From the IMG/VR virus record IMGVR_UViG_2645727868_000018: a DNA stretch of 15,264 bases; one strand, written 5' to 3'. Positions 701-13,301 of the stretch are shown in pieces (position 1 is the stretch's first letter; each line of letters opens with the position of its first letter). Both the position numbers and the translations under genes were made by a program. The stretch is from a virus. Lineage: Duplodnaviria > Heunggongvirae > Uroviricota > Caudoviricetes. Under the pieces are notes generated by a model. That model saw nothing but the letters and a program-made list of their open reading frames with translations, did not search any database and had not been told where the DNA came from.

Positions 701-776
<76 letters not shown>

Positions 777-829
777 GTTTAAAAGGCATCGGCGTCAGCG
801 GATGTCTGGCTGAAAGGCCTGAAGAATTT

Positions 830-903
830 GGCGCGTTAACAAAGCGGTTATGTAGCGGATTGCAAATCCGTCTAGTCCGGTTCGACTCCGGAACGCGCCT
901 CCA
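830..903 (+). tRNA. cysT: tRNA-Cys (anticodon GCA)
   Basis: 74-nt sequence GGCGCGTTAACAAAGCGGTTATGTAGCGGATTGCAAATCCG...CCGGTTCGACTCCGGAACGCGCCTCCA. Acceptor stem GGCGCGT/ACGCGCC, anticodon GCA, T-loop TTCGACT, encoded CCA. Confidence 0.95.
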
Positions 904-915
904 CTTTTTTCCCGA

Positions 916-1002
916 GCCCGGATGGTGGAATCGGTAGACACAAGGGATTTAAAATCCCTCGGCGTTCGCGCTGTGCGGGTTCAAGTCCCGCTCCGGGTAC
1001 CA
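916..1002 (+). tRNA. leuZ: tRNA-Leu (anticodon UAA), type II tRNA with long variable arm
   Basis: 87-nt sequence GCCCGGATGGTGGAATCGGTAGACACAAGGGATTTAAAATCCC...GCGGGTTCAAGTCCCGCTCCGGGTACCA. Anticodon loop TTTAAAA gives anticodon TAA; long variable arm, T-loop TTCAAGT, encoded CCA. Third member of the known glyW-cysT-leuZ operon. Confidence 0.95.
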
Positions 1003-1132: not shown

Positions 1133-2149
1133 TCATTTTCTCTGGCCACCAACTACGGGCACTACTTTAACTTTCCGGTCATATGCTGCTGTCTGTCGCG
1201 GGTTCTTATGCCCGGAAATTGCTTGCTTCTCTTCCAGGCTGCCTTCCAGATCAGAGATACCTTTTGCTTTCAGATCATGAAATGTGAAGTCTATTTGCAG
1301 ATGAGGATATTTTTCCTGTGCTGCCGCTTTGACATCACGCCAACGAGAGTTAAAACCATCACGGGTATACTTGCCACCGGTAGTTTGATGAATCACAAAC
1401 AGGCTACTGATTCCCGTTTTTAATGGCAGAGAACGAGCCAGAGCTATCGCTTTCTGCAGACGAGGCGACCAGGCTTTGATTTGCTTAACGCCGGTTTTTC
1501 CCTGACGAATGTAGATCCCGGAATCGAACAGCTGGTCTTTCTGCAATGAAAGTACATCACTCTGTCTGGCCACGCATAAGTAGGCAATCTCCATTGCTAC
1601 GCGAACAACATCAGGAGACACTTCATAAACGGCCTGATATTCTTCATCCGTAATATAACGTTCGCGAGCTTTCTCTTTAAACTGTTTAACTCCCTGACAA
1701 GGATTCCTCTGAACATAACCTCGTTCATAACCCCAACGGAATACCCGGGACATAAAGCTTTTTTCCCTGTTTGCCTGAGTTCGGCTTGATAAACCGCGTT
1801 GATCCATATAGCGCCGAATATGTTCAGGTTTGATTTTATCCGGGTCGATCTTCCCGAAGACAGGCAGAACTTTTCCGGAATATTTTGTGTAGTCTTTCCG
1901 GGTTTCGACTGCCAAATCCATAAAATCAGGGGAGGTCATGAATTGTTCCGTGAGCGCCTGAAAAGTATTTCTTTCTTTTTCGTCACCGACCGCTTTTTCA
2001 TATGCCAGCCATACGGCTGATCGTGGTGCATCCAATGCGCACAGGCGTATCGCTTTGTTATCTTTATTCCTGAATTCGTAGGCCGCTTTGCCCTGGTAAA
2101 CACGAGGCGGCATCCAGTTATCTGCTGGGTTCTTTCTCTTTCCGGCCAT
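1133..2149 (-). CDS. int: Phage tyrosine integrase (lambda Int family)
   Basis: Long minus-strand ORF. The C-terminal catalytic region FHDLKAKGISDL...ISGHKNPRQTAAYDR parallels lambda Int HELRSL...LLGHKSDTMASQYRD (His/Arg box, catalytic Tyr). Start taken at Met11 (MAGKRKNPADNW...) at 2149; the ORF-track start at 2179 is possible. Confidence 0.9.
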   Translation of the reverse strand: MAGKRKNPADNWMPPRVYQGKAAYEFRNKDNKAIRLCALDAPRSAVWLAYEKAVGDEKERNTFQALTEQFMTSPDFMDLAVETRKDYTKYSGKVLPVFGKIDPDKIKPEHIRRYMDQRGLSSRTQANREKSFMSRVFRWGYERGYVQRNPCQGVKQFKEKARERYITDEEYQAVYEVSPDVVRVAMEIAYLCVARQSDVLSLQKDQLFDSGIYIRQGKTGVKQIKAWSPRLQKAIALARSLPLKTGISSLFVIHQTTGGKYTRDGFNSRWRDVKAAAQEKYPHLQIDFTFHDLKAKGISDLEGSLEEKQAISGHKNPRQTAAYDRKVKVVPVVGGQRK

Positions 2150-2381
2150 TAAATATTGCTCCAAAATCAGGTTCATCATCTTTTCGCGTCGTCACCTCCT
2201 GTAAATTGCGAAATTTTATTGGGTTCATGAAATGGCCCCAGGTTGTTTTTGGGTGTCCGTCAGCCCTTTCCATGAAGAAAATTCCAGCCCGGCGAAGAGC
2301 CTCACATTGCTTTGATTTAAGTGGGCTTCCCGTCAGCTCGACCATTTCTTCTCTGGTGATTATGTCGTGATCGCTTTTCAT
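2118..2381 (-). CDS. xis: Excisionase-like small DNA-binding protein
   Basis: 87-aa ORF immediately upstream of and overlapping int. The segment ITREEMVELTGSPLKSKQCEALRRAGIFFMERADGHPKTTW resembles the winged-helix core of phage excisionases. The ribosome-binding site GAGGAAAGACC sits immediately before the ATG at 2381. Family assignment by eye only. Confidence 0.5.
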   Translation of the reverse strand: MKSDHDIITREEMVELTGSPLKSKQCEALRRAGIFFMERADGHPKTTWGHFMNPIKFRNLQEVTTRKDDEPDFGAIFNGRKEKEPSR

Positions 2382-2541
2382 GGTCTTTCCTCATTATGTA
2401 GCTTATTGCGTCATCTGCCTTCTGGCAGGCACGGGCAATATCAGACTCGGTCAAAGTCTGTTTCCTGACGCTGGCCGACAGTCGACCAATTTTGATATCA
2501 AATGCGGAGAGCAGAGTTGCTCCCGGTTGCCATCGCAGCAT
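2317..2541 (-). CDS. Hypothetical protein (74 aa from first in-frame ATG)
   Basis: The ORF-track entry 2317..2571 starts with TTG; the first ATG at 2541 has a good SD (GGAGGA, about 6-nt spacer). Its 3' end overlaps the xis-like ORF by 65 nt in another frame, so one of the two calls or their starts may be wrong. Confidence 0.3.
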   Translation of the reverse strand: MLRWQPGATLLSAFDIKIGRLSASVRKQTLTESDIARACQKADDAISYIMRKDHEKRSRHNHQRRNGRADGKPT

Positions 2542-2590: not shown

Positions 2591-2773
2591 TTATTTCTGA
2601 TTAGGCGTAATCAGTTCTTGTGGGGTGAATGCCGATTTCTCCCGAGTGACCTTAATGTTTTCTGGCAGGTGTAGCCCAAGTTCGCAGCGGCTCCGTGCTT
2701 CAATAATGCCATTGGTACCATCGGCAAGTACCAGGTGAACCGCGTCACCACGCTTTAATGTGAGTTTAAGCAT
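2591..2773 (-). CDS. Small protein with CsrA/RsmA-like sequence pattern (60 aa)
   Basis: SD GAGGA 7-8 nt upstream of ATG; start overlaps the Gp157-like stop (TAATG). Ungapped comparison with E. coli CsrA (61 aa, recalled from memory) gives M1, L2, L4, T5, G9, G33, P37, V42, R44, E45 at identical positions. Assignment by eye, not by search. Confidence 0.45.
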   Translation of the reverse strand: MLKLTLKRGDAVHLVLADGTNGIIEARSRCELGLHLPENIKVTREKSAFTPQELITPNQK

Positions 2774-3342
2774 TAGCGTATCCTCAGTGACCGTTCGCCG
2801 CGTTCCAGATGTGCGCCTGGTACCGGGTTTAATAACTCGGCTGGTGGTGTTTCTCCACGCGCCAGTATTTCGGCGGCAACCGCCTCCGCAGATTCAATCA
2901 CTTCTTTAATGGCTCGCTTGTTTGGTGTAATAACCGTTTCTACATCAACAAGTGACACGCCCTCATACTCATCCGGGATCTTATCTTTGCTATCGATAAT
3001 TACCCGGATAGCCCCCTGTGCATCAGTAAATGTGTTTTTTGCGGTTTTCAGTTTATCCAGGCCAGCAGCTTGCAGGCAGGTGAGCATATGCTTTCGAATT
3101 GCTTTTTCCTTGCCTTCAAAGGACGTCTTACGGGTTGCCAGGCGAGACATTTCTTCAGCGCAGGTATTGGCATTGCCCTGTAAATTACGGCAGATGACCA
3201 TCATGGCGTCCAGTTTGTCTCCCAGTTCTCCTTCCATGCCTTCAAGCGTGTCGGCGATCATCTCTGGCGTCAGTTCATCGGCGGTTTCTAACAGGTCAAT
3301 CAGACTGGCATATTCTTTTGCAATAGCGATAGCAGTGCTCAT
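2773..3342 (-). CDS. Gp157-family phage protein (Sipho_Gp157-like), usually found in recombination modules
   Basis: 189-aa acidic, coiled-coil-rich protein. N-terminus ...LIDLLETADELTPEMIADTLEGMEGELGDKLDAMMVICRNLQGNANTCAEEMSRLATRK... and ...IPDEYEGV... match the recalled profile of the Gp157 family. SD AGGAG precedes the ATG at 3342; the gene is adjacent to a Sak/Rad52-like gene as usual for this family. Confidence 0.6.
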   Translation of the reverse strand: MSTAIAIAKEYASLIDLLETADELTPEMIADTLEGMEGELGDKLDAMMVICRNLQGNANTCAEEMSRLATRKTSFEGKEKAIRKHMLTCLQAAGLDKLKTAKNTFTDAQGAIRVIIDSKDKIPDEYEGVSLVDVETVITPNKRAIKEVIESAEAVAAEILARGETPPAELLNPVPGAHLERGERSLRIR

Positions 3343-5555
3343 GCTGTTTGCTCCTGTGCAGCGGTAAGGGCGGCGAGGCGTTCAGTTTTAATGTCGGTGA
3401 TACGGCGCAGACGTGATCCCAGATACGATGAATATTCTTTATCGCCTTTGGTTTCCGCTGCTTTCCTGTGTACATCCACTTCGCGGGCGATGAGGCCAAA
3501 TACCTTGTTTACTTCGTTGGCGGTTACCGCGGCGGCCAGCGTATTGGCAACGTTGATAAGCTTCTCATCCAGTTCCTTACGCAGACGGGTAGCATCTTCC
3601 GCATTCTCGCTGGCATTCTTGATATCAAACTCAGCTTTATTCCTCTGGCGGTATTCCGGATTGTCGTACAGGCCCATGAAAATATCGGCGCTGAATCCGA
3701 GAGGGGATAGCGCTTTCTTAACAGCATCCGTCCAGGATTTCTTCGGTGCTTCGCCGTCGCTTGTTGGTCCGTATTTAGTGTCGTAGATATAAGGTGTGCA
3801 TCCGTAAGCCTCGGACTCACCGCGTACCCCATTCAATATGTACCAGACTCTCACTTTCATGGTGTGGTGCATTTCACATAGGTACCCGCCAACACCGTCT
3901 TGAATCAGATCCCATTCTATTTTTTCACCAACCTGTTTTTTGCGAACTATTGGTGCGCCTTTATCAAAGCGCTCCTCCAGCACCTCTACCCCCCAGCCAA
4001 TACCAAATGGCCCAAATTCGCGAGTCGCTTTCATCGCTATATAAGTGCCGTTGATGGATGTGCCGCCGCCATTCTGAGAGAAAGCACTGGTGAAGCGCTC
4101 ATCGGTTTTGAATACGTTCTTCCACAATGCCAGGTTATCCGTGTCATCTGAGTCCTTTAACTCCGTTTCGATAGCTGAGATTGCATTCTGCCGCTTGTGC
4201 TCTTCGGCATGGATCCGCTCAACCAGCGCGTCAACGTTCTGCACCAGATCCTTTACCTGCTCGCTAAGTTGTTCTTGTGGAGGAGTCTCTTCTGCCAGGG
4301 TAATAGCTGCAGGTTCCCTCTGTGATACGGCGTTATTTTCAGGTACGTCATACACATGGCGAGGCGTGACAAACTGCTCACGCAACTGCTGCAAACTACG
4401 TTCTCCAGCATTTGCAGCTTCGCTTTTTTCGCCCTGATTTGAGGGTGTTTCTGACATCATCCCATCAATTGAGAATCGTCCGCCGCCGTGGTTGGTGACT
4501 TTTACATCATCCTTGGGTGCTGCTTCCTTTGGCTTCTCTTCAACAGCATTTGCATCACGCTGCCCGTTAGCTTGCAGCCAGTTGTCGATGTGACTGCGCA
4601 GGGATTGTGGGAAGTGGTACGTGTCTTTTGCGGGGGCGCTCTGAATAACACCGAATACTGATGCGCGGTCATAGGCAAGGATCTGATCCGTTGTGCGCAA
4701 GGCCATTGACCAGCGTTTAAAATCTTCCCTGTCCTGACTGATTATTTCGTCTGCCGCTTTCAGGATGCTGGGGGTGATTTTTTCCGGGGCAACAGGTAAC
4801 AGGGCGCAGGCAATTTCACGATCCAGAGTGGCGTGAGTCTGTTTGTAAGGACGTGCGGATGCTGTTTCTGGTTTTACCTCCGGCAGCATTTCATCTCGTT
4901 TACCGGGATTCTCTACCCATTTTTTTATAAATTTGGAGATAGTCCAACTGGTCGGGTTTTGTTCCTGGGTATCGCAACTTGCCAAAATTGCATGTACCAG
5001 ATTATTCAATCCAGCAATATGCATGTACTCGATGGGCTTACACGCCACCATGGCATCAAGAACGATGCGGTTAAACGCGTCAACCTCATCCTCACTGTCA
5101 GTATCACTGTTATCGAGCATCTCCAGGTATTCACGCGTCTGCACAAGCAATTCACTGTCGACTTCGTTGGCGTCGTGGCTGAACAGCAGAACGGCGGCGA
5201 ATCGTTCACGAGCCGGCAGTTTCATCAGGTCGCTAACCTGTGAGATATCTGCTGAACTGCAATCTGAATCAACAGGAGTGTTAACTACCCATTTTTCGCC
5301 ATCAAAACTGTGTTCTGTGGCAAACGTCTCATCAAACTCACCGACGCCTGGGCGCGGTTGGCCCGGGGCATCTTCCCAGATTTTAGGTTTGAAATAGTTG
5401 TCGCCGTGGTCAGGGTAGGCTTCCCACAATTTGCCGATGATGATGTTCTCGGCAACTTTTTTGTTAGGGGCGGCGATGGCGATGGCCAGCGCCGGGATCG
5501 CGCCGTTTTTGAGCGCGCCTTTTTTCGCTTCTAACAAGCCGTTAAAAATGGTCAT
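3339..5555 (-). CDS. Large phage protein (738 aa) with Rad52/Sak-type single-strand annealing domain in its C-terminal half; N-terminal ~450 aa of unknown function
   Basis: Uninterrupted 2217-nt ORF with the motif GAGGAAAGACC-A-ATG at its start. Residues ~480-640 (GGYLCEMHH...APKKSWTDAVKKALSPLGFSADIFMGLYDN) resemble the conserved core of Rad52/Sak annealing proteins (compare Rad52 KKSAVTDALKRSLRGFG and Sak SSALKRCASSGFGIGRYLYDL, both recalled from memory). Acidic low-complexity linker (DNSDTDSEDEVD) and a C-terminal coiled coil. Confidence 0.55.
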   Translation of the reverse strand: MTIFNGLLEAKKGALKNGAIPALAIAIAAPNKKVAENIIIGKLWEAYPDHGDNYFKPKIWEDAPGQPRPGVGEFDETFATEHSFDGEKWVVNTPVDSDCSSADISQVSDLMKLPARERFAAVLLFSHDANEVDSELLVQTREYLEMLDNSDTDSEDEVDAFNRIVLDAMVACKPIEYMHIAGLNNLVHAILASCDTQEQNPTSWTISKFIKKWVENPGKRDEMLPEVKPETASARPYKQTHATLDREIACALLPVAPEKITPSILKAADEIISQDREDFKRWSMALRTTDQILAYDRASVFGVIQSAPAKDTYHFPQSLRSHIDNWLQANGQRDANAVEEKPKEAAPKDDVKVTNHGGGRFSIDGMMSETPSNQGEKSEAANAGERSLQQLREQFVTPRHVYDVPENNAVSQREPAAITLAEETPPQEQLSEQVKDLVQNVDALVERIHAEEHKRQNAISAIETELKDSDDTDNLALWKNVFKTDERFTSAFSQNGGGTSINGTYIAMKATREFGPFGIGWGVEVLEERFDKGAPIVRKKQVGEKIEWDLIQDGVGGYLCEMHHTMKVRVWYILNGVRGESEAYGCTPYIYDTKYGPTSDGEAPKKSWTDAVKKALSPLGFSADIFMGLYDNPEYRQRNKAEFDIKNASENAEDATRLRKELDEKLINVANTLAAAVTANEVNKVFGLIAREVDVHRKAAETKGDKEYSSYLGSRLRRITDIKTERLAALTAAQEQTA

Positions 5556-5585
5556 TGGTCTTTCCTCATTACAGGTCAGTGGTTT

Positions 5586-5906
5586 TTAGTAGGGGAGCTC
5601 ATCGGTATCTGGCGTGTATTCGATGCAAAGTAACTGCTGGATTTTGTCATCGATAGCAGCAATACGCTGTTGGGCGTCGGCGACTGTTTTCTGTTTTTGT
5701 TCACGCAGTTGCTCGACCTGTAAACCGATGATGTCGATTGGCTCGGGCTGGTTAACGGTAATTTCAATTTCGCGGCTTTCCAGAAGGATGTACCTGTCTG
5801 GAAAATTTTTTGACATATCAACAGTCGCAACAAGCAGCTTTTCGTGGCTGAAAGTTGAAGTTGCATAATGAATAAAGAGTGTTACTGGGATGGTGCGCGC
5901 TTCCAT
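5586..5906 (-). CDS. Hypothetical protein (106 aa), first gene of the leftward early operon
   Basis: Strong SD (AAGGAG) 7 nt before the ATG at 5906; its stop lies 30 nt upstream of the 738-aa gene start. No recognisable family; not arginine-rich, so not N-like. Confidence 0.5.
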   Translation of the reverse strand: MEARTIPVTLFIHYATSTFSHEKLLVATVDMSKNFPDRYILLESREIEITVNQPEPIDIIGLQVEQLREQKQKTVADAQQRIAAIDDKIQQLLCIEYTPDTDELPY

Positions 5907-6303
5907 AGCGACTCCTTGGTAATGTATACTCAGAGCCGATCAGCGAATATTGATCAGCTTCCATAGCGTCAGTGTCGTTGGTCTTTCCTCATCACAAGTT
6001 TGGTCACTTGTGATAAATCCGAATGGTTTGGTCGCCGTTCGGGGTAACTGGCCCGCCTTGTGCGGGTCTTTTGCTATCTAAAGGGTGCCGGTTACGTTTC
6101 CGGCGTCGTTATGTTTCCATTACGACCGTACAGGGCTGGTCAGGCCCGGGCTGGTCTTTCCTGTTTTGAGCTGGTCAGGCTCATGGTCAACGCTGGTCAG
6201 GCGTGGTACTTCCTCCGGTCTTTCCCTGGTGTCACGCTGCGGGTTTGGCCTCTCCTGTTGGGGACTCAGGCACAGCGATAAAACCTGGCTGTGTGAAAAA
6301 ATG

Positions 6304-6323
6304 GCCCATCGTGCGGACTGGGC
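6304..6323 (-). terminator. Terminator-like hairpin plus U6 on the minus strand, 3' of the tRNA-like fragment
   Basis: Minus-strand reading GCCCA-gtccgcacga-TGGGC followed by CA-TTTTTT (plus 6296-6301 is AAAAAA). Short 5-bp stem with a 10-nt loop, so only a weak candidate. Confidence 0.25.
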
Positions 6324-6344
6324 AAAGACTAAACACAGCAAATT

Positions 6345-6372
6345 GATGATGGGCGCCCGGAATCGAACCGGG
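6345..6372 (-). other. tRNA-like fragment (T-arm plus acceptor-like 3' strand) inside the leftward leader
   Basis: Minus-strand sequence CCCGG-TTCGATT-CCGGG-CGCCCAT has a perfect 5-bp T-stem and canonical T-loop. No complementary acceptor 5' strand, D-arm or CCA could be found, so it is not a complete tRNA gene. Confidence 0.3.
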
Positions 6373-6769
6373 TAACGGGCAGGGAGTTCCCGTTAAACAC
6401 CTGTTCACCACAACCGGGAGCGCACTCCGCCATTTCAAAATTTAACGACAAAGCTCAAAGTTGAGTCGATGAAGTGCGCTCTCGTGTTGTAGCCAGGACT
6501 CTTCCCTGGTGGTCACACCGTATCGCCTTGATGGTGAATCAATCGCTCATACCTGGCTGTGGCTTGCACATTCCGGCTACCTGCTATGGAGACAACGCGT
6601 TAAGGCTCCGCTTCCATCCAGACCGCTTCGACACATGTGCCATATGCCGGTGAAGTCTTTCCCTCTGTCACCGTGTTGGCGCCGACGCGCAAAATTTGGT
6701 GCCGTCTTTCCGGCTGTCAGAACGTGTTTCTGAACAACTGCCGCTGGGTAAGCGTTGTTGATGAAAGTG

Positions 6770-6798
6770 ACTTTACAATTTGTATTTGTAATGGTCAA
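6770..6798 (-). promoter_or_regulatory. Candidate leftward early promoter (pL-like) with embedded operator motif
   Basis: On the minus strand: -35 TTGACC (rc of 6793-6798), 17-bp spacer ATTACAAATACAAATTG, -10 TAAAGT (rc of 6770-6775). The spacer and flank carry the same ATTTGTA-type motif as the cI/cro operator region (ATAATTTGTA also at 6811-6820). Confidence 0.4.
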
Positions 6799-6916
6799 TG
6801 TGTTTTTAAAAAATAATTTGTAGTGAGGGGCAAAAAAATATTCACTGTGTAAAGGTGTTTTTGTGTTAGGGGAAAGTTGCATGCCAGCAGCGGCTGGCCT
6901 GGAAATTTGAACTGAA

Positions 6917-7345
6917 CTATTTTGTCTGGTTTTTGGCTTCAAGTAGTTCTTTTAGCAGTAGATCGAAGTGCTCTCTTTTTTCTTTTAGCTCATTGATTAA
7001 TTTATTTTTTTCGCTCTCAGGCAGTCCTCTGAATAGTTGCAGTAGAGCCTGTTCTTGCGGGGTTAGTTCTTGATTGTAATTACCCGGGTGTAGTGTGGAT
7101 TCATCCAAATATTCCCCTTCATTCATGAAGAAAAAATGAACAGGGTATCCGGTCACTTTTGCTAGCTTGTCTAATTTATCTTTTCTTGGAGTTACCCCAT
7201 TACACCATGCCTGAACTGATTGAGCCGTAACCCCAATATGGCGAGCTAACTCAGATTGAGACCAGCCTAAGTCTTTTAGAATCCGTTGTAGTCGGCTAGC
7301 AAAAGCCATGTTTTTCGTTTTTGTGTTCATACCGTAAGGATACAA
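6917..7345 (-). CDS. Phage repressor, XRE-family HTH, without S24 peptidase domain (CI/RacR-like)
   Basis: 142-aa ORF divergent from the cro-like gene. HTH motif ...LGWSQSELARHIGVTAQSVQAWCNG... in the N-terminal part; the C-terminal ~60 aa is a charged coiled coil with no Ser/Lys autopeptidase motifs. Start uncertain (Met at 7345, 7330 or 7309); the transcript may be leaderless. Confidence 0.8.
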   Translation of the reverse strand: MYPYGMNTKTKNMAFASRLQRILKDLGWSQSELARHIGVTAQSVQAWCNGVTPRKDKLDKLAKVTGYPVHFFFMNEGEYLDESTLHPGNYNQELTPQEQALLQLFRGLPESEKNKLINELKEKREHFDLLLKELLEAKNQTK

Positions 7346-7428
7346 GGTTTAATTGTAGGGAGCATTGCAAATATAATTTGTAATTACAGTTATTGTTTGT
7401 AATGATGACGCGGACACAAGGAGTCCAT
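7346..7428. promoter_or_regulatory. Divergent immunity promoter/operator region (pRM-like leftward, pR-like rightward)
   Basis: Near-palindromes ATTGCAAAT-ATA-ATTTGTAAT (7364-7384) and ATTACA-N9-TGTAAT (7383-7403). Consensus -10 TATAAT at 7372-7377 on the plus strand; TACAAT (rc of 7352-7357) lies about 7 nt before the repressor ATG on the minus strand. Confidence 0.5.
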
Positions 7429-7659
7429 ATGGATAAACAACTGCAAGACAAAATTCTTTCCGTAATGAGTCAATCCGAGTTAGGGCGGCGATTAGGGAAA
7501 AAACCACAAACGGTAAGCCTCTGGTTCAAAGGACGGGTTCCCGGTGAAGAGGTTTTGCGCACATCTGAAGCTCTTGAATGGCGCGTGACCCCTCATGATC
7601 TTAGACCGGATCTTTACCCAAACCCAGATGACAGCTTGCCTAAAACGGAAGCAGCTTAA
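7429..7659 (+). CDS. Cro-like regulator (YdaS/Cro family HTH)
   Basis: Start placed at the ATG at 7429 with SD AAGGAG 7 nt upstream (the ORF track offers 7393). The translation MDKQLQDKILSVMSQSELGRRLGKKPQTVSLWFKGRVP...DLRPDLYP shows the HTH and the LRPD motif shared with Rac YdaS-type Cro proteins. Confidence 0.75.
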   Translation: MDKQLQDKILSVMSQSELGRRLGKKPQTVSLWFKGRVPGEEVLRTSEALEWRVTPHDLRPDLYPNPDDSLPKTEAA

Positions 7660-7717
7660 CTGTTGGTGAGCCCCAAATCTGATTAAGCGTAATCAATTTT
7701 TAGCGACAGGAGACGCT

Positions 7718-8194
7718 ATGGAAAACCAAGAGGAATTACAAAAAGAGATTTTGACCTGGGCGGCAAGGGCAGGGCAGGAACTCGTCACGATTGAAATCTG
7801 CCGGGCCTGGTTCAGTCAGGGACGCAATGATGAGTTGAGACTACATGAATTTGAGGACGCGGACGGCAACGTGGACTGGAGAGCCATCAACAACAATCGG
7901 CAGAAAATCTTTCGCTGGTTACGTGGCGAGACAACGGCGGCGCGCCGAAAAACTCAGGTGCTGGCCAGTGTGATGAAAGCCGTGCTACCCGCAGAACGGC
8001 GGGCACGTCTGGAGTCGCCGGGCGATCCCGTTTTGCTGGCAACGCTGGCGGCAAAAGAAGGGGTGGAAGCGATTAACGCTGTACATCTCCACTTCGCGCC
8101 AGAGTTAACTATTCAGGAAATTGACGAAGCAATAGCGGCGCTGGTAGCGACGCGAGGAGCAGTGATACGCACTGCGCAAGACCACCATGCATGA
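7718..8194 (+). CDS. CII-like early regulatory protein (YdaT/CP76-like), tentative
   Basis: 158-aa ORF with SD AGGAG, immediately downstream of cro as in the Rac ydaS-ydaT and lambda cro-cII arrangements. The family call rests on synteny and general resemblance only. Confidence 0.45.
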   Translation: MENQEELQKEILTWAARAGQELVTIEICRAWFSQGRNDELRLHEFEDADGNVDWRAINNNRQKIFRWLRGETTAARRKTQVLASVMKAVLPAERRARLESPGDPVLLATLAAKEGVEAINAVHLHFAPELTIQEIDEAIAALVATRGAVIRTAQDHHA

Positions 8195-8233
8195 GCGCCT
8201 GACCAGCGTTTAACTTATACCGAGGAAAGACCG

Positions 8234-8458
8234 ATGTTAAGACATATTGACCGCATTACCTGGCGTAACGGCTGGCACCTGAATGGACGCCCGGCACATG
8301 TTGCAGAGATCCGCCCCATATTCGATGGCCGCGTCGCAGCTGCACGTTCTGTATGGGAAAAGTACGAAGAAGAAAAAGCGAAACTGCGTGAGCAAAATCT
8401 CTCTGGCGCTGCCTATGAGGCTGGCTGTCGCGTTCTCTCAGAGGCTTTGGGCATATGA
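8234..8458 (+). CDS. Hypothetical protein (74 aa)
   Basis: Preceded by the conserved motif GAGGAAAGACC-G-ATG. Its stop overlaps the next start (ATGA), consistent with translational coupling to the replication gene. Confidence 0.45.
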   Translation: MLRHIDRITWRNGWHLNGRPAHVAEIRPIFDGRVAAARSVWEKYEEEKAKLREQNLSGAAYEAGCRVLSEALGI

Positions 8459-10615: not shown

Positions 10616-10653
10616 CCACGCCTGACCAGCGTGAAATAACCGAGGAAAGACCA

Positions 10654-11064
10654 ATGACCACCACTCCAGGCAAATTAGAGTACCCGTCGGACAAAGGACA
10701 CATAGACGACGGTAAAAACTATCTCGACGTCATTTTGTGGAATATGAACGTCGGGCCACGTGCGCGCACTCGCGCGGTTTTTGTGCCAAGACCTAAAGCA
10801 GGCAATTTTTCAACCCCTGCTAAGCCTGCCCGTCAGGCATCCGTAGCCGCAGCGCCAGCAGTGAAACGTAAGGGCAAAACGCACACCGGGATCGCGATTC
10901 GCAGAAATGGTGAGCGGCAAGTGAAACTCCACGAAACAGCGACAACCTGGTGTGCCTCACCGCATGAAACTTACGACAAGATAACCGGGCAGCGCATTGG
11001 CGCGCCTGGTCGCTGCCGCCTGCTGCTGAGTTCCATCACTCCGATAGCAAAGAAAGGGGCGTGA
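10654..11064 (+). CDS. Hypothetical protein (136 aa), basic and Pro/Ala-rich
   Basis: Preceded by the conserved junction cassette CGCCTGACCAGCG-N9-GAGGAAAGACC-A-ATG; no recognisable family. Confidence 0.5.
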   Translation: MTTTPGKLEYPSDKGHIDDGKNYLDVILWNMNVGPRARTRAVFVPRPKAGNFSTPAKPARQASVAAAPAVKRKGKTHTGIAIRRNGERQVKLHETATTWCASPHETYDKITGQRIGAPGRCRLLLSSITPIAKKGA

Positions 11065-12241: not shown

Positions 12242-12270
12242 TTGACTTAGAAAAAGTCCGGGGCTATAGT
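12242..12270 (+). promoter_or_regulatory. Near-consensus sigma70 promoter (TTGACT, 17 bp, TATAGT) upstream of the antirepressor leader
   Basis: Seen in sequence: -35 TTGACT at 12242-12247, 17-bp spacer, -10 TATAGT at 12265-12270. Located directly after the stop of the 73-aa ORF. Confidence 0.5.
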
Positions 12271-12330
12271 TTCCGCGCAGCCGCAAAATCGGTTGCCGGG
12301 ATTGGCGTCCCGGATATCTAAGTGACGCAT

Positions 12331-12351
12331 AGCCGCGTTAGCGGTTTTTTT
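12331..12351 (+). terminator. Short intrinsic terminator or attenuator (6-bp stem with one G-U pair, 4-nt loop, U7) about 75 nt downstream of the promoter
   Basis: AGCCGC-GTTA-GCGGTT followed by TTTTT (T-run 12345-12351). Preceded by a perfect hairpin CCGGGA-TTGGCG-TCCCGG at 12296-12313. Together with the promoter this defines a short transcript or a leader attenuator about 160 nt ahead of the antirepressor start. Confidence 0.4.
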
Positions 12352-12512
12352 ATGTGTTAGGCACGGCCACATTCGCATTATGGTGGGCTGTGTGGGGGCT
12401 TCTGTGGAAGCGCCGGGTTCACTTAGCCGGTTACGCCAACCCTGCACAGCTCACCACCAGATGATTGGCGTCGCTGGTGGTGATGAAAAAAACACTAAGT
12501 GAGGCCACTGCG

Positions 12513-13301
12513 ATGACAGTCCAAATATCTGCGGAATCCCTTTCTCCGCTACATCATAACCAACTTCCCGTCATCACTACTGAATTGCTTGCCAGTTTGT
12601 ATGGCACGGAAGTAAATGGTATCCAGCAAAACTTCAAGCGCAACATCGCCAGATTTGTCGTAGGAAAGCATTTTTTTAAGCTGGAAGGTAATGAATTACG
12701 CGACTTCAAAAACAGACTGACAGATAGTCAGTCAGTTGCTAAACATACCCGATCCCTCATTCTCTGGACAGAACGCGGCGCAGCTCGCCATGCCAAAATG
12801 CTGGAAACAGAACAGGCCTGGGAAGTTTTCGAAAAGCTGGAAGATTGTTATTTTAGCCAGCGTCCAGAGAGGCGGAGTACAACTACCGATGACCGTACTC
12901 CCTTGCGTGATGCCGTTAATATACTGGTCGGCAAGAAAGGCATGATGTATCCCGATGCCTACACCATGATTCATCAACGCTTCGCCGTCTCTCACATAGA
13001 ACAACTGTCACAGACGCAAATGTTAGAGGCGATTGAATACATCCACTGCCTGCTACTCGATGAAAATCACCCAACCATTCCAGATTTTTCTTTTATCACC
13101 ACTATCAAAAATGGAAAAGTGACCGGGATGCGCCATGTTGCCAAAGGCGAACATCTGATGACCTTTGACGCTTTCAAAGAGATCGCTGAGCGGGCAGGGT
13201 ATCTGGTGATCCACAGCGACAATCTGCGAAGTATGACACTGGATAAATTGATGGTAATGGGGAAAAAGTCGGCTATATCCGTTGCTAATTCAGCATTTTG
13301 A
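12513..13301 (+). CDS. Phage antirepressor-like protein with ORF6N-type N-terminal domain
   Basis: N-terminal region LPVITTELLASLYGTEVNGIQQNFKRNIARFVVGKHFFKLEGNELRDF matches the recalled ORF6N (antirepressor/Rha-like) pattern. Start placed at ATG 12513 (SD GTGAGG, 8-nt spacer); the ORF-track start at 12465 is a TTG inside a hairpin. Confidence 0.65.
   Translation: MTVQISAESLSPLHHNQLPVITTELLASLYGTEVNGIQQNFKRNIARFVVGKHFFKLEGNELRDFKNRLTDSQSVAKHTRSLILWTERGAARHAKMLETEQAWEVFEKLEDCYFSQRPERRSTTTDDRTPLRDAVNILVGKKGMMYPDAYTMIHQRFAVSHIEQLSQTQMLEAIEYIHCLLLDENHPTIPDFSFITTIKNGKVTGMRHVAKGEHLMTFDAFKEIAERAGYLVIHSDNLRSMTLDKLMVMGKKSAISVANSAF

Follow-up and report, generated by a model that had tools for sequence, protein, structure and literature searches.

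The stretch analysed here (the window) is 15,264 nt of DNA from a Caudoviricetes virus, IMG/VR record IMGVR_UViG_2645727868_000018, and is the early region of an Escherichia coli ST131-type prophage. Between its repressor gene and hyp106, the first leftward gene, lies a gap without an annotated gene, and in this gap two short motifs recur as an array that has no open reading frame (ORF) attached. The same two motifs stand at the ribosome-binding sites (RBSs) of early genes, and beside the array, on the opposite strand, we found a predicted gene for an antisense small RNA (sRNA) that is complementary to both. The gap is read as the leader of the leftward early operon because a predicted promoter with operator-like repeats lies at 6798-6770. 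The main features of the gap are as follows.

5907-6916: stretch of about 1 kb without an annotated gene, the leader of the leftward early operon
6770-6798, minus strand: predicted leftward early promoter, sigma-70-like (TTGACC-17-TAAAGT, from a promoter scan), at the start of the leader of about 850 nt
6133-6228, minus strand: the array
about 5936-6077, plus strand: predicted antisense sRNA gene of about 140 nt, antisense to the 3' part of the leader, adjoining the first leftward gene and about 60 nt from the array

In the sense direction, 5' to 3', the array is built of two kinds of element, an unpaired b motif and a hairpin.

6225-6217, minus strand: b1, an exact GGAAAGACC
6216-6205, minus strand: a degenerate third b copy, GGAGGAAGUACC
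6204-6190, minus strand: hairpin H1, ACGC[CUGACCA]GCGU
6183-6167, minus strand: hairpin H2, UGAGC[CUGACCA]GCUCA, preceded by a loose GACCA
6161-6153, minus strand: b2, an exact GGAAAGACC
6147-6133, minus strand: hairpin H3, GGGC[CUGACCA]GCCC

The five motif copies listed by a first-pass annotation, made from the letters alone, are all present on the minus strand (GGAAAGACC at 6217-6225 and 6153-6161; CCTGACCAGC at 6192-6201, 6170-6179 and 6135-6144); the degenerate third b copy had been missed. Its 13-mer CGCCTGACCAGCG is also there, with a true span of 6191-6203, and the two degenerate copies that it saw further upstream exist one base away from where it had put them, at 6703-6711 (GGAAAGACG) and 6654-6662 (GGAAAGACT). 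With up to one mismatch allowed, GGAAAGACC occurs 14 times in the window against 3.3 expected, a count reached in 0/200 shuffles, and CCTGACCAGC occurs 5 times against 0.7 expected, again equalled in 0/200 shuffles. All seven exact copies of GGAAAGACC (7/7) lie on the locally transcribed strand. CCTGACCAGC is a hairpin in which the 7-nt loop CUGACCA is conserved and the stems are variable, and the fold prediction that the annotation had proposed placed 3/3 CUGACCA sequences of the array sense RNA in 7-nt loops and left the GGAAAGACC copies unpaired, in both the minimum free energy and the centroid structure. Neither strand of the array gave a significantly stable fold (z = -0.75 and -1.27), a measure that is uninformative for such short hairpins.

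No ORF starts at the array, as had been noted. A coding role was rejected: the ORFs that overlap the array have no Pfam match, the array segment is missing in close relatives, and the frames of the upstream ATGs that lie 3' of GAGGAAAGACC in the leader are not conserved.

The annotation had also stated that the array motifs are the two half-elements of cassettes at gene starts, and these cassettes were indeed found at hyp74 and hyp136. Together with two leftward genes, four gene starts carry the element.

8193-8236, plus strand: hyp74 RBS cassette, hairpin GAGCGC[CUGACCA]GCGUUU (two G·U pairs in the sense orientation), 10 nt, GAGGAAAGACC, G, ATG
10618-10656, plus strand: RBS cassette of hyp136, the first gene past DnaB, hairpin ACGC[CUGACCA]GCGU, 9 nt, GAGGAAAGACC, A, ATG
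5553-5579, minus strand: RBS cassette of the gene for a 738-amino-acid (738-aa) protein, a degenerate CUGACC, then AAUGAGGAAAGACCAAUG
2379-2392, minus strand: RBS of the xis-like DUF4224 gene, GAGGAAAGACC directly before the ATG

Thus 4/7 of the exact GGAAAGACC copies belong to a GAGGAAAGACC placed 0-1 nt before the ATG of DUF4224, the 738-aa gene, hyp74 or hyp136. At hyp74 (8198-8236) and hyp136 (10621-10656), CCTGACCAGC is followed after 14 and 11 nt, respectively, by GAGGAAAGACC-N-ATG, and the spacing from CGCCTGACCAGCG to GAGGAAAGACC is 13 and 10 nt; GAGGAAAGACC-(N)-ATG also stands at the 738-aa gene (5557-5567) and at DUF4224 (2382-2392). The cassette of the 738-aa gene, where relatives carry a full hairpin, has about 19 nt complementary to the sRNA, spanning the Shine-Dalgarno (SD) sequence and the start codon.

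A search led by hyp106 gathered 57 related loci, from E. whittamii, four Serratia species, IMG/VR contigs and phage BUCT708, and a pattern scan added 119 further stretches to them. Cassette-bearing stretches of viral contigs number at least 120. In phages whose hyp106 is only 53-59% identical, all ten letters of AGGAAAGACC are kept at the four corresponding gene boundaries, and the CUGACCA-loop hairpin is likewise present there. Over the whole BUCT708 genome, AGGAAAGACC occurs at early genes and in the leader only. Conservation of the cassette far exceeds what an SD sequence needs. Across the relatives we collected 29 distinct hairpins of the cassette type, in which the loop (C/A)U(G/A/C)ACCA is kept while the stems vary freely. 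Read in the sense orientation, their non-Watson-Crick stem positions are 9 G·U against 3 A·C, and therefore the target hairpins fold in the sense mRNA. A full-text literature search for GAGGAAAGACC returned nothing relevant.

The predicted sRNA gene has the following parts, where SL denotes a stem-loop.

5924-5929, plus strand: predicted -10 box of the sRNA promoter, TATACT
5938-5983, plus strand: SL1, in which GAUCAG... pairs with ...UUGGUC
5978-5990, plus strand: the full seed, UUGGUCUUUCCUC
5984-5990, plus strand: free single-stranded linker UUUCCUC
5991-6014, plus strand: SL2, loop UUGGUC
6019-6042, plus strand: SL3, loop UUUGGUCG
6050-6068, plus strand: stem of a predicted intrinsic terminator, followed by UCUUUUGC

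When the last 150-180 nt of the leader were aligned from 31 distinct relatives, a fixed series of hairpins appeared between the terminator and the start of hyp106, and a first count of stem positions other than Watson-Crick gave 76 G·U on the plus strand against 4. The consensus structure was then derived from per-sequence folds of 22 distinct sequences, replacing RNAalifold on the raw alignment, which had mis-paired the flanks and the terminator. In these 22 sequences, 97.5% of the cells of SL1-SL3 were paired compared with 82.7% in shuffles (0/500 as high), 15/22 pairs showed compensatory changes, and sliding the structure by 1-3 columns lowered the paired fraction to at most 57.6%. SL1 contains an invariant GAUC(A/G) that pairs with UUGGUC at the start of the seed. 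The scored stems held 91 G·U on the plus strand and 1 A·C, and pairing was 97.5% as plus-strand RNA versus 78.3% as minus-strand RNA. The fold therefore belongs to the plus strand, because the non-Watson-Crick pairs are G·U there and A·C on the sense strand. Every lineage keeps the terminator's U-tail on the plus-strand side, and the sRNA terminators of relatives are strong (U7); the minus-strand-side U-tail is missing in the window and in the L002, L003 and L023/L024 lineages. A -10 box, TATAAT or TATACT and often an extended TGnTATAAT, precedes the gene in 28/29 distinct relatives listed, the exception being L004 with TATAAA. All contigs that carry cassettes and extend over the leader also contain the sRNA core. 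From its structure, an sRNA gene very probably exists at about 5936-6077 on the plus strand.

Rfam gave no family for the predicted sRNA or for the array at the gathering threshold, nor did cmscan with permissive E-values over 5850-6950 on both strands, and the literature searched on sRNAs of ST131 prophages and on mimicry of RprA held no description of the 5936-6077 RNA. The Pas sRNAs were rejected as a match, being unrelated elements of the late region. Within the SL1 loop the window has a lineage-specific insertion (5898-5975, plus strand) with a duplicated CGCTTCCATAGCG, which makes a second GCUAUGGAAGC on the sense strand with an out-of-frame ATG at 5964; L003, BUCT708 and the Serratia-type relatives lack the insertion.

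The sRNA hairpins and the target hairpins thus fold on opposite strands, as two complementary sets with an invariant ACCA/UGGU core: UGGU(C) in the sRNA loops is complementary to the (G)ACCA core in the target loops, and the seed UUGGUCUUUCCUC is the exact complement of GAGGAAAGACCAA. We scored the seed by RNAduplex against every 30-nt segment of both strands of the 15 kb, with a background of -9.4 +/- 3.5 kcal/mol. The cis site came first, and the next best in the window were exactly the four cassette RBSs.

738-aa gene RBS: -32.9 kcal/mol, the best trans site in the window
hyp136 RBS: -31.1 kcal/mol
xis-like DUF4224 RBS: -29.1 kcal/mol
hyp74 RBS: -27.3 kcal/mol

The predicted pairing spans the SD sequence and the start codon, and the array copy at 6153-6161 reaches -22.4 kcal/mol. 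In the relatives the complementarity between a cassette and the sRNA of its own phage often extends to 13-21 nt, for example UGUAUCGAGGAAAGACCAACA in L005. Over 13 seed lineages, an sRNA and a cassette of one genome score better together than pairs drawn from different genomes (-28.4 versus -26.1 kcal/mol, permutation p<5e-5, without correction for phylogeny). On this sequence evidence, regulation of the cassettes in trans by the predicted sRNA appears fairly probable.

In the mechanism that we propose, the sRNA would expose a single-stranded anti-RBS seed, (UUGGUC)UUUCCUC, and two UUGGUC loops. Four early genes (the xis-like DUF4224 gene, the 738-aa exonuclease/annealase fusion, hyp74, which heads the replication genes, and hyp136, which comes after DnaB) carry a dedicated complementary cassette, in which a hairpin whose loop (CUGACCA) contains ACCA precedes AGGAAAGACC at the SD-to-start position. 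The sRNA would dock through a loop-loop contact, pair over the SD sequence and the start codon and repress the four genes jointly. The array offers the same two elements in the sense leader RNA; it is read as a set of extra sRNA-binding sites because both elements are displayed there, in loops or as unpaired GGAAAGACC, without an ORF. As in a sponge, the array and the modules in the 5' part of the leader provide several seed-complementary sites without a regulated ORF. The most likely role of the array would then be that of a decoy, which soaks up the sRNA once the leftward promoter fires upon induction and so frees the four genes, and the perfectly complementary cis region of the leftward transcript would add to the titration. 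Alternatively, the leader sites may recruit the sRNA to attenuate or destabilise the leader. The first-pass annotation had suggested a decoy or binding array for a regulator shared with the cassette-bearing genes; the general idea fits, and in place of the proteins it had in mind the sequence points to the adjacent antisense sRNA. Its other suggestion, a processing signal, found nothing in its support. The sequences themselves show the motifs with their enrichment, the covariation of the hairpins, the strand-specific fold of the sRNA and its terminator, the complementarity with the order of the target sites, and the varying copy number of the array. We infer the expression of the sRNA, its pairing in vivo, the direction of the regulation and the decoy role, and give the array about an even chance of being a group of sRNA-binding sites. 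The explanation as a whole, anti-RBS control by the sRNA with the array as extra binding or decoy sites, is the best that we have and stands, in our estimate, midway between right and wrong. A further step is tentative and somewhat doubtful: that, in a family of temperate Enterobacterales phages, one cis-encoded antisense sRNA gates xis, recombination, the replication module and the gene after DnaB as an "anti-RBS regulon", in which expandable leader decoys would make lytic commitment switch-like.

Several observations weigh against this explanation. A strong leader terminator lies at 6304-6330 on the minus strand with the array downstream of it, and the array would therefore be transcribed on read-through only. 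The predicted sRNA promoter has a weak -35 and was not called by the consensus promoter scan. The permutation test in favour of same-genome pairing of sRNA and cassette ignores phylogeny. Cofolding of the full sRNA with the array surpassed shuffled arrays by a modest margin only (ddG -10.2 against -5.1 +/- 2.9), with 12/200 shuffles as good, by a method that cannot model loop-loop contacts. Co-variation between the loops of the sRNA and of the cassette hairpins was sought across lineages and not found, and lineages with GUGGUU loops in the sRNA still have CUGACCA in the cassettes of their genes, so that only about 5 bp remain for loop-loop pairing. It could also be that cis target and cassettes are paralogous copies of an element that something else recognises, in which case the complementarity would be a by-product. 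Finally, the stems of the array hairpins are purely Watson-Crick, so that G·U pairs do not tell on which strand they fold.

This last property, which makes the hairpins strand-neutral, is shared ground with a reading in which the array works on the plus strand: read-through of the sRNA terminator would yield a longer isoform with extra seeds (GGUCUUUCC) and UGGUCAG loops, and the array would be an amplified regulator rather than a target. Each plus-strand unit does have the layout of the sRNA, a seed and then a UGGUC-loop hairpin, and that strand can form a hairpin resembling a terminator, with a U-rich tail, at 6132-6158. On the other hand, the strong U7 terminators of the relatives' sRNAs make read-through unlikely, the same elements act in the sense mRNA at the gene cassettes, as their G·U pairs in that orientation indicate, and when the array region is folded as plus-strand RNA, long helices hide the motifs. 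We consider the plus-strand role very unlikely.

A more serious competitor starts from the other hairpins of the leader.

6649-6719, minus strand: direct repeat of two 22-nt modules, each UGACAG-hairpin[GAAAGA loop]-CACC; the two degenerate copies corrected above belong here

The GAAAGA loop, as in CCGG[GAAAGA]CCGG, is complementary to UCUUUC of the predicted sRNA linker. Across the relatives, 34 distinct GAAAGA-loop candidates were scored, some of which are unstructured RBS sites and not hairpins; the genuine hairpins have covarying stems with G·U in the sense orientation. Both the CUGACCA and the GAAAGA hairpins, together with AGGAAAGACC, might be sites for an RNA-binding protein of the phage or the host (N-like, Com/RegA-type or CsrA), in which case the array would be a platform for protein binding or titration and the antisense RNA would be a cis regulator alone, of the leader and hyp106. 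A conserved loop on variable, covarying stems is the classic sign of a hairpin recognised by a protein, as in boxB and coat-protein operators, the GAAAGA-loop hairpins lie about 50-110 nt downstream of the predicted leftward promoter in a nutL-like position, the leader terminators need some mechanism of antitermination, and the loops of sRNA and cassettes fail to co-vary in the GUGGUU lineages. However, two Pfam scans covering 19 ORFs found no CsrA, N or other RNA-binding family. A search for boxA (GCTCTTTAACAA, up to 3 mismatches) gave 15 matches versus 14.3 expected and zero within the leader. The array loops contain no GGA, which occurs only in the unpaired GGAAAGACC. Binding by a protein also leaves unexplained why both types of motif are complementary to exposed parts of the adjacent sRNA, and why the four cassette RBSs are the best targets of that sRNA, with 13-21 nt of complementarity. 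On balance this alternative seems rather unlikely to us.

Two specific forms of protein control were rejected. One is a lambda-type nut site: the leader has no boxA, and hyp106, the first leftward ORF, which was inspected for an N-like antiterminator, has no Pfam match and an N-terminus that is not arginine-rich. For boxB the picture is mixed: the array loops, 7-nt CUGACCA, do not resemble it, and separate hairpins with a GAAAGA hexaloop are present at 6649-6719. The other is a CsrA sponge of the CsrB/CsrC type, for which the loops lack GGA and Pfam found no CsrA-family protein among the window ORFs; the CsrA-like regulator of the first-pass annotation falls with it.

The comparison with relatives separates a constant part of the array from a variable one. 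Most relatives have about 72 nt between the upstream leader terminator and the sRNA terminator, with one basal unit in the order GAGGAAAGACC, 3-5 nt, hairpin[CUGACCA], CUGACAG, hairpin[GAAAGA]. This unit is retained in every relative examined (E. coli, Serratia, BUCT708) with compensatory changes in the stems, which indicates selection on RNA structure. In the lineage of the window the same segment is 221 nt long and the motifs follow in the order b, b*, a, a, b, a; independent expansions were seen in this lineage, in BUCT708, in L023 and in L159. The last, an IMG/VR contig, shows at about 4900-5000 on the minus strand a clean tandem duplication of the basal unit of about 50 nt (GAGGAAAGACC, hairpin, GAAAGA hairpin). 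H3 has been lost in L013, L016, L020 and L021 through a deletion between two GACCAGCCC repeats. In L003 and L014, which are colinear with the window and 96-99% identical to it, about 100 bp with a single unit stand in place of 6091-6352, the segment that comprises the array and the upstream terminator, and their four gene cassettes are the same as those of the window. The expanded array is therefore dispensable in nature, which counts against the decoy explanation as well. The first-pass annotation had held that absence of the array from otherwise identical prophages would tell against a function; L003 and L014 do lack the expansion, and a basal copy is nevertheless found in every relative examined. 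As far as the sequences go, the expanded array is lineage-specific, dispensable and evolutionarily labile, and the basal unit is universal.

Such instability suits a reading in which the array has no function and is a by-product of recombination or slippage between cassette repeats, like the "linker" sequences at module boundaries of mosaic temperate phages, drifting neutrally in a non-coding leader. Copy number differs among near-identical prophages (the H3 deletion, and L003 and L014 without the expansion), and the hyp136 cassette repeats H1 and its flank (CCACGCCTGACCAGCGT) letter for letter. A by-product would hardly account for a basal unit kept in all lineages examined with compensatory stem changes, for at least 4 independent expansions, or for the order b, b*, a, a, b, a, which is unlike a simple cassette scar. 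We regard this origin as unlikely.

The repeats might also be sites at the level of DNA, such as iterons, operators or recombination sites for a DNA-binding protein, as they are short direct repeats clustered between genes near the immunity genes. Their orientation, however, strictly follows the direction of transcription, the covarying stems, conserved loops and tolerated G·U are features of RNA, and the phage has operator-like repeats of a different sequence, ATTTGTAAT. Repeats of this type flank the predicted leftward promoter (6784-6825), and similar ATTTGTAAT/TTTGTAAT sequences lie directly 5' of the cro-like gene (7345-7428); they are probably the operators of the repressor. A DNA-level role for the array is thus extremely improbable. 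The immunity region, 6768-7676, has been exchanged for another in L003, L014 and L013, where the flanks are still 96-99% identical.

Upstream of the array, the cmscan run that the first-pass annotation had recommended gave only a sub-threshold match to RprA and a tRNA-Sec-like match.

6296-6345 (match span 6294-6404), minus strand: RprA-like 3' module, made of AUUUGCUGUGUUUAGUCUUUGCCC, a terminator hairpin and U6, forming the leader terminator just upstream of the array
6348-6428, minus strand: tRNA-like T-arm and acceptor fragment (CCCGGUUCGAUUCCGGGCGCCCA), just upstream of the RprA-like module

The match to RprA (RF00034) at 6294-6404 scored 37.4 bits (E=0.012), below the gathering score of 70, and the likeness is limited to the 3' half, UUGCUGUGUxUAGUCUUUGCCC plus the terminator; membership in the RprA family was rejected on both grounds. 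The single-stranded part of the module is kept in Serratia-type relatives despite different terminator stems. As the module ends in a terminator, a leftward transcript stopping there would finish in an RprA-like module. For the Shiga toxin transcript, a phage sRNA made by early termination has been reported (PMC7547250). ARAGORN called no tRNA in the leader, where only the T-arm/acceptor-like fragment is present, and other fragments resembling the 3' half of a tRNA occupy the corresponding place in other lineages (L030/L031, L057); the fragment may be a processing handle or a remnant.

Around the leader, the genes are arranged as follows.

1133-2149, minus strand: integrase, leftward gene
2118-2381, minus strand: DUF4224, xis-like, leftward gene
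between DUF4224 and Gp157 in the listed order, minus strand: 60-aa ORF, leftward gene
2773-3342, minus strand: Gp157, leftward gene
3339-5555, minus strand: the 738-aa protein, exonuclease/annealase fusion, leftward gene annotated "hypothetical protein"
5586-5906, minus strand: hyp106, first leftward gene after the leader
6917-7309, minus strand: helix-turn-helix repressor, beyond the gene-free gap
plus strand, in this order: the rightward genes for the cro-like protein, YdaT, hyp74, a 251-aa protein, DnaB, hyp136 and others

The 738-aa protein looks like a fusion of an exonuclease and an annealing protein: its residues ~40-330 resemble exonucleases of the RecE/exonuclease VIII type, and residues ~440-700 are similar to single-strand annealing proteins of the Rad52-like kind from Pseudomonas and Vibrio phages. 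A chromosomal prophage matching the window is present in 475/5,426 complete E. coli genomes, in 416 of them with an identity of at least 99%; most carry ST131-type names, and many are ST131/O25b strains. The insertion site adjoins the genes for tRNA-Gly/Cys/Leu (glyW-cysT-leuZ); the integrase gene (1133-2149, minus strand) lies 130 nt downstream of that for tRNA-Leu (leuZ; tRNA segment at 701-1002, plus strand). The 3' external transcribed spacer (3'ETS) of leuZ is an sRNA sponge in E. coli K-12, and integration downstream of leuZ may displace it.

BUCT708 and BUCT709 (L002/L058, OM816834.1), recorded as Stenotrophomonas phages, are the only isolated phages with the leader; to the E. coli prophage and the Serratia prophages they show about 75% nucleotide identity in the leader and complete synteny of the early region. 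In the array of clustered regularly interspaced short palindromic repeats (CRISPR) of E. coli XH992, a 32-nt spacer is identical to 6187-6218, that is, H1 and the degenerate b site, and E. coli 2020CK-00188 has two consecutive identical 32-nt spacers against the seed and SL2 of the sRNA (5975-6006, plus strand); the corresponding entries are L060 402-433 and L059 402-433. The sRNA/array locus is thus a natural CRISPR target in E. coli. Further to the right, at 12264-13301 on the plus strand, c4-a1b1 targets, isrK (80.4 bits) and a C4 antisense RNA (75.2 bits) stand directly 5' of a gene for an ORF6N-domain protein, and Rfam places the genuine C4/isrK RNAs at 12264-12461. As this C4/isrK/ORF6N antirepressor locus is also present, the prophage would carry two independent antisense-RNA circuits.

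If the proposed mechanism is true, a widespread and unstudied group of temperate phages, spanning the 475/5,426 complete E. coli genomes and Serratia with the cassette in at least 120 viral-contig stretches, would coordinate four early functions post-transcriptionally through one sRNA. It would do so with identical, purpose-built RBS cassettes, tuned by the copy number of decoys in the leader, and a multi-target, trans-acting layer would be added to the lysis-lysogeny control of phages. The start-associated repeats of other phages would thereby gain an explanation open to testing. The sRNA and its cassettes could also serve as compact orthogonal parts for synthetic control of translation.

Among known systems, the closest in logic is the C4 RNA of phages P1 and P7 (RF01695, RF03163), through which immI controls icd-ant. 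It too is a small phage RNA with two recognition elements complementary to paired short repeats; one motif overlaps the RBS of the regulated gene, and an extra pair of motifs lies in the untranslated leader without an ORF. The a1/b1, a2/b2 logic of C4 parallels the pairs of hairpin loop and AGGAAAGACC in this prophage as a functional analogy only. C4 has no homology in sequence or structure to the predicted sRNA, and cmscan at permissive E-values over 5850-6950 on both strands gave no C4 or a1b1 match. C4 arises by processing of the transcript that also holds its targets, whereas the predicted sRNA is convergent, on the opposite strand and with its own predicted promoter, and its four putative target genes are dispersed over both early operons instead of one.

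RNA control of early or immunity functions in temperate phages is also exemplified by the CI RNA of satellite P4 with the seqA/seqC repeats of its leader, by sar of P22 and by OOP of lambda. In P4, repeated leader sequences are complementary to the small RNA, and the CI RNA is on the same strand and causes termination; P22 sar is a cis-antisense RNA covering an RBS, and sar and OOP have single cis targets. None of these is known to have dedicated RBS cassettes shared by several genes, or an array of decoys that can expand. The sRNA sponges, such as the prophage anti-sRNAs AgvB and AsxR (PMC4104026) and 3'ETS-leuZ, resemble the array in having seed-complementary sites without a productive target, which set a threshold for regulation. 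Known sponges usually mimic one target site, whereas the putative sponge here would be the phage's own early leader, with several copies of two types of motif.

The anatomy of the cassettes closely recalls the start-associated sequences (SAS) and extended SAS (ESAS) of Cluster K mycobacteriophages, in which the ATG of non-structural genes is preceded at a distance of a few nt by a conserved asymmetric motif that includes the SD core and occurs in one orientation (PMC3203893). An inverted repeat stands 5' of about half of the SAS sites, unrelated genes share the conserved motif, and the authors left open whether RNA or protein binds it (PMC3203893). The cassettes share the SD-core motif in one orientation, the non-structural genes and, in a subset, the upstream inverted repeat. 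The SAS consensus GGGATAGGAGCCC does not occur in them, the motif here being (G/U)AGGAAAGACC and the hosts being different; they are analogues and not homologues. They differ from SAS also in that a complementary RNA partner can be identified in the same genome and in that copies cluster without an ORF. If true, the predicted sRNA would be the first concrete RNA partner for repeats of the "start-associated sequence" type, whose function has been open since 2011. By analogy, the finding would belong to antisense-RNA control in temperate phages, with a design that differs from those of C4, P4 and sar.

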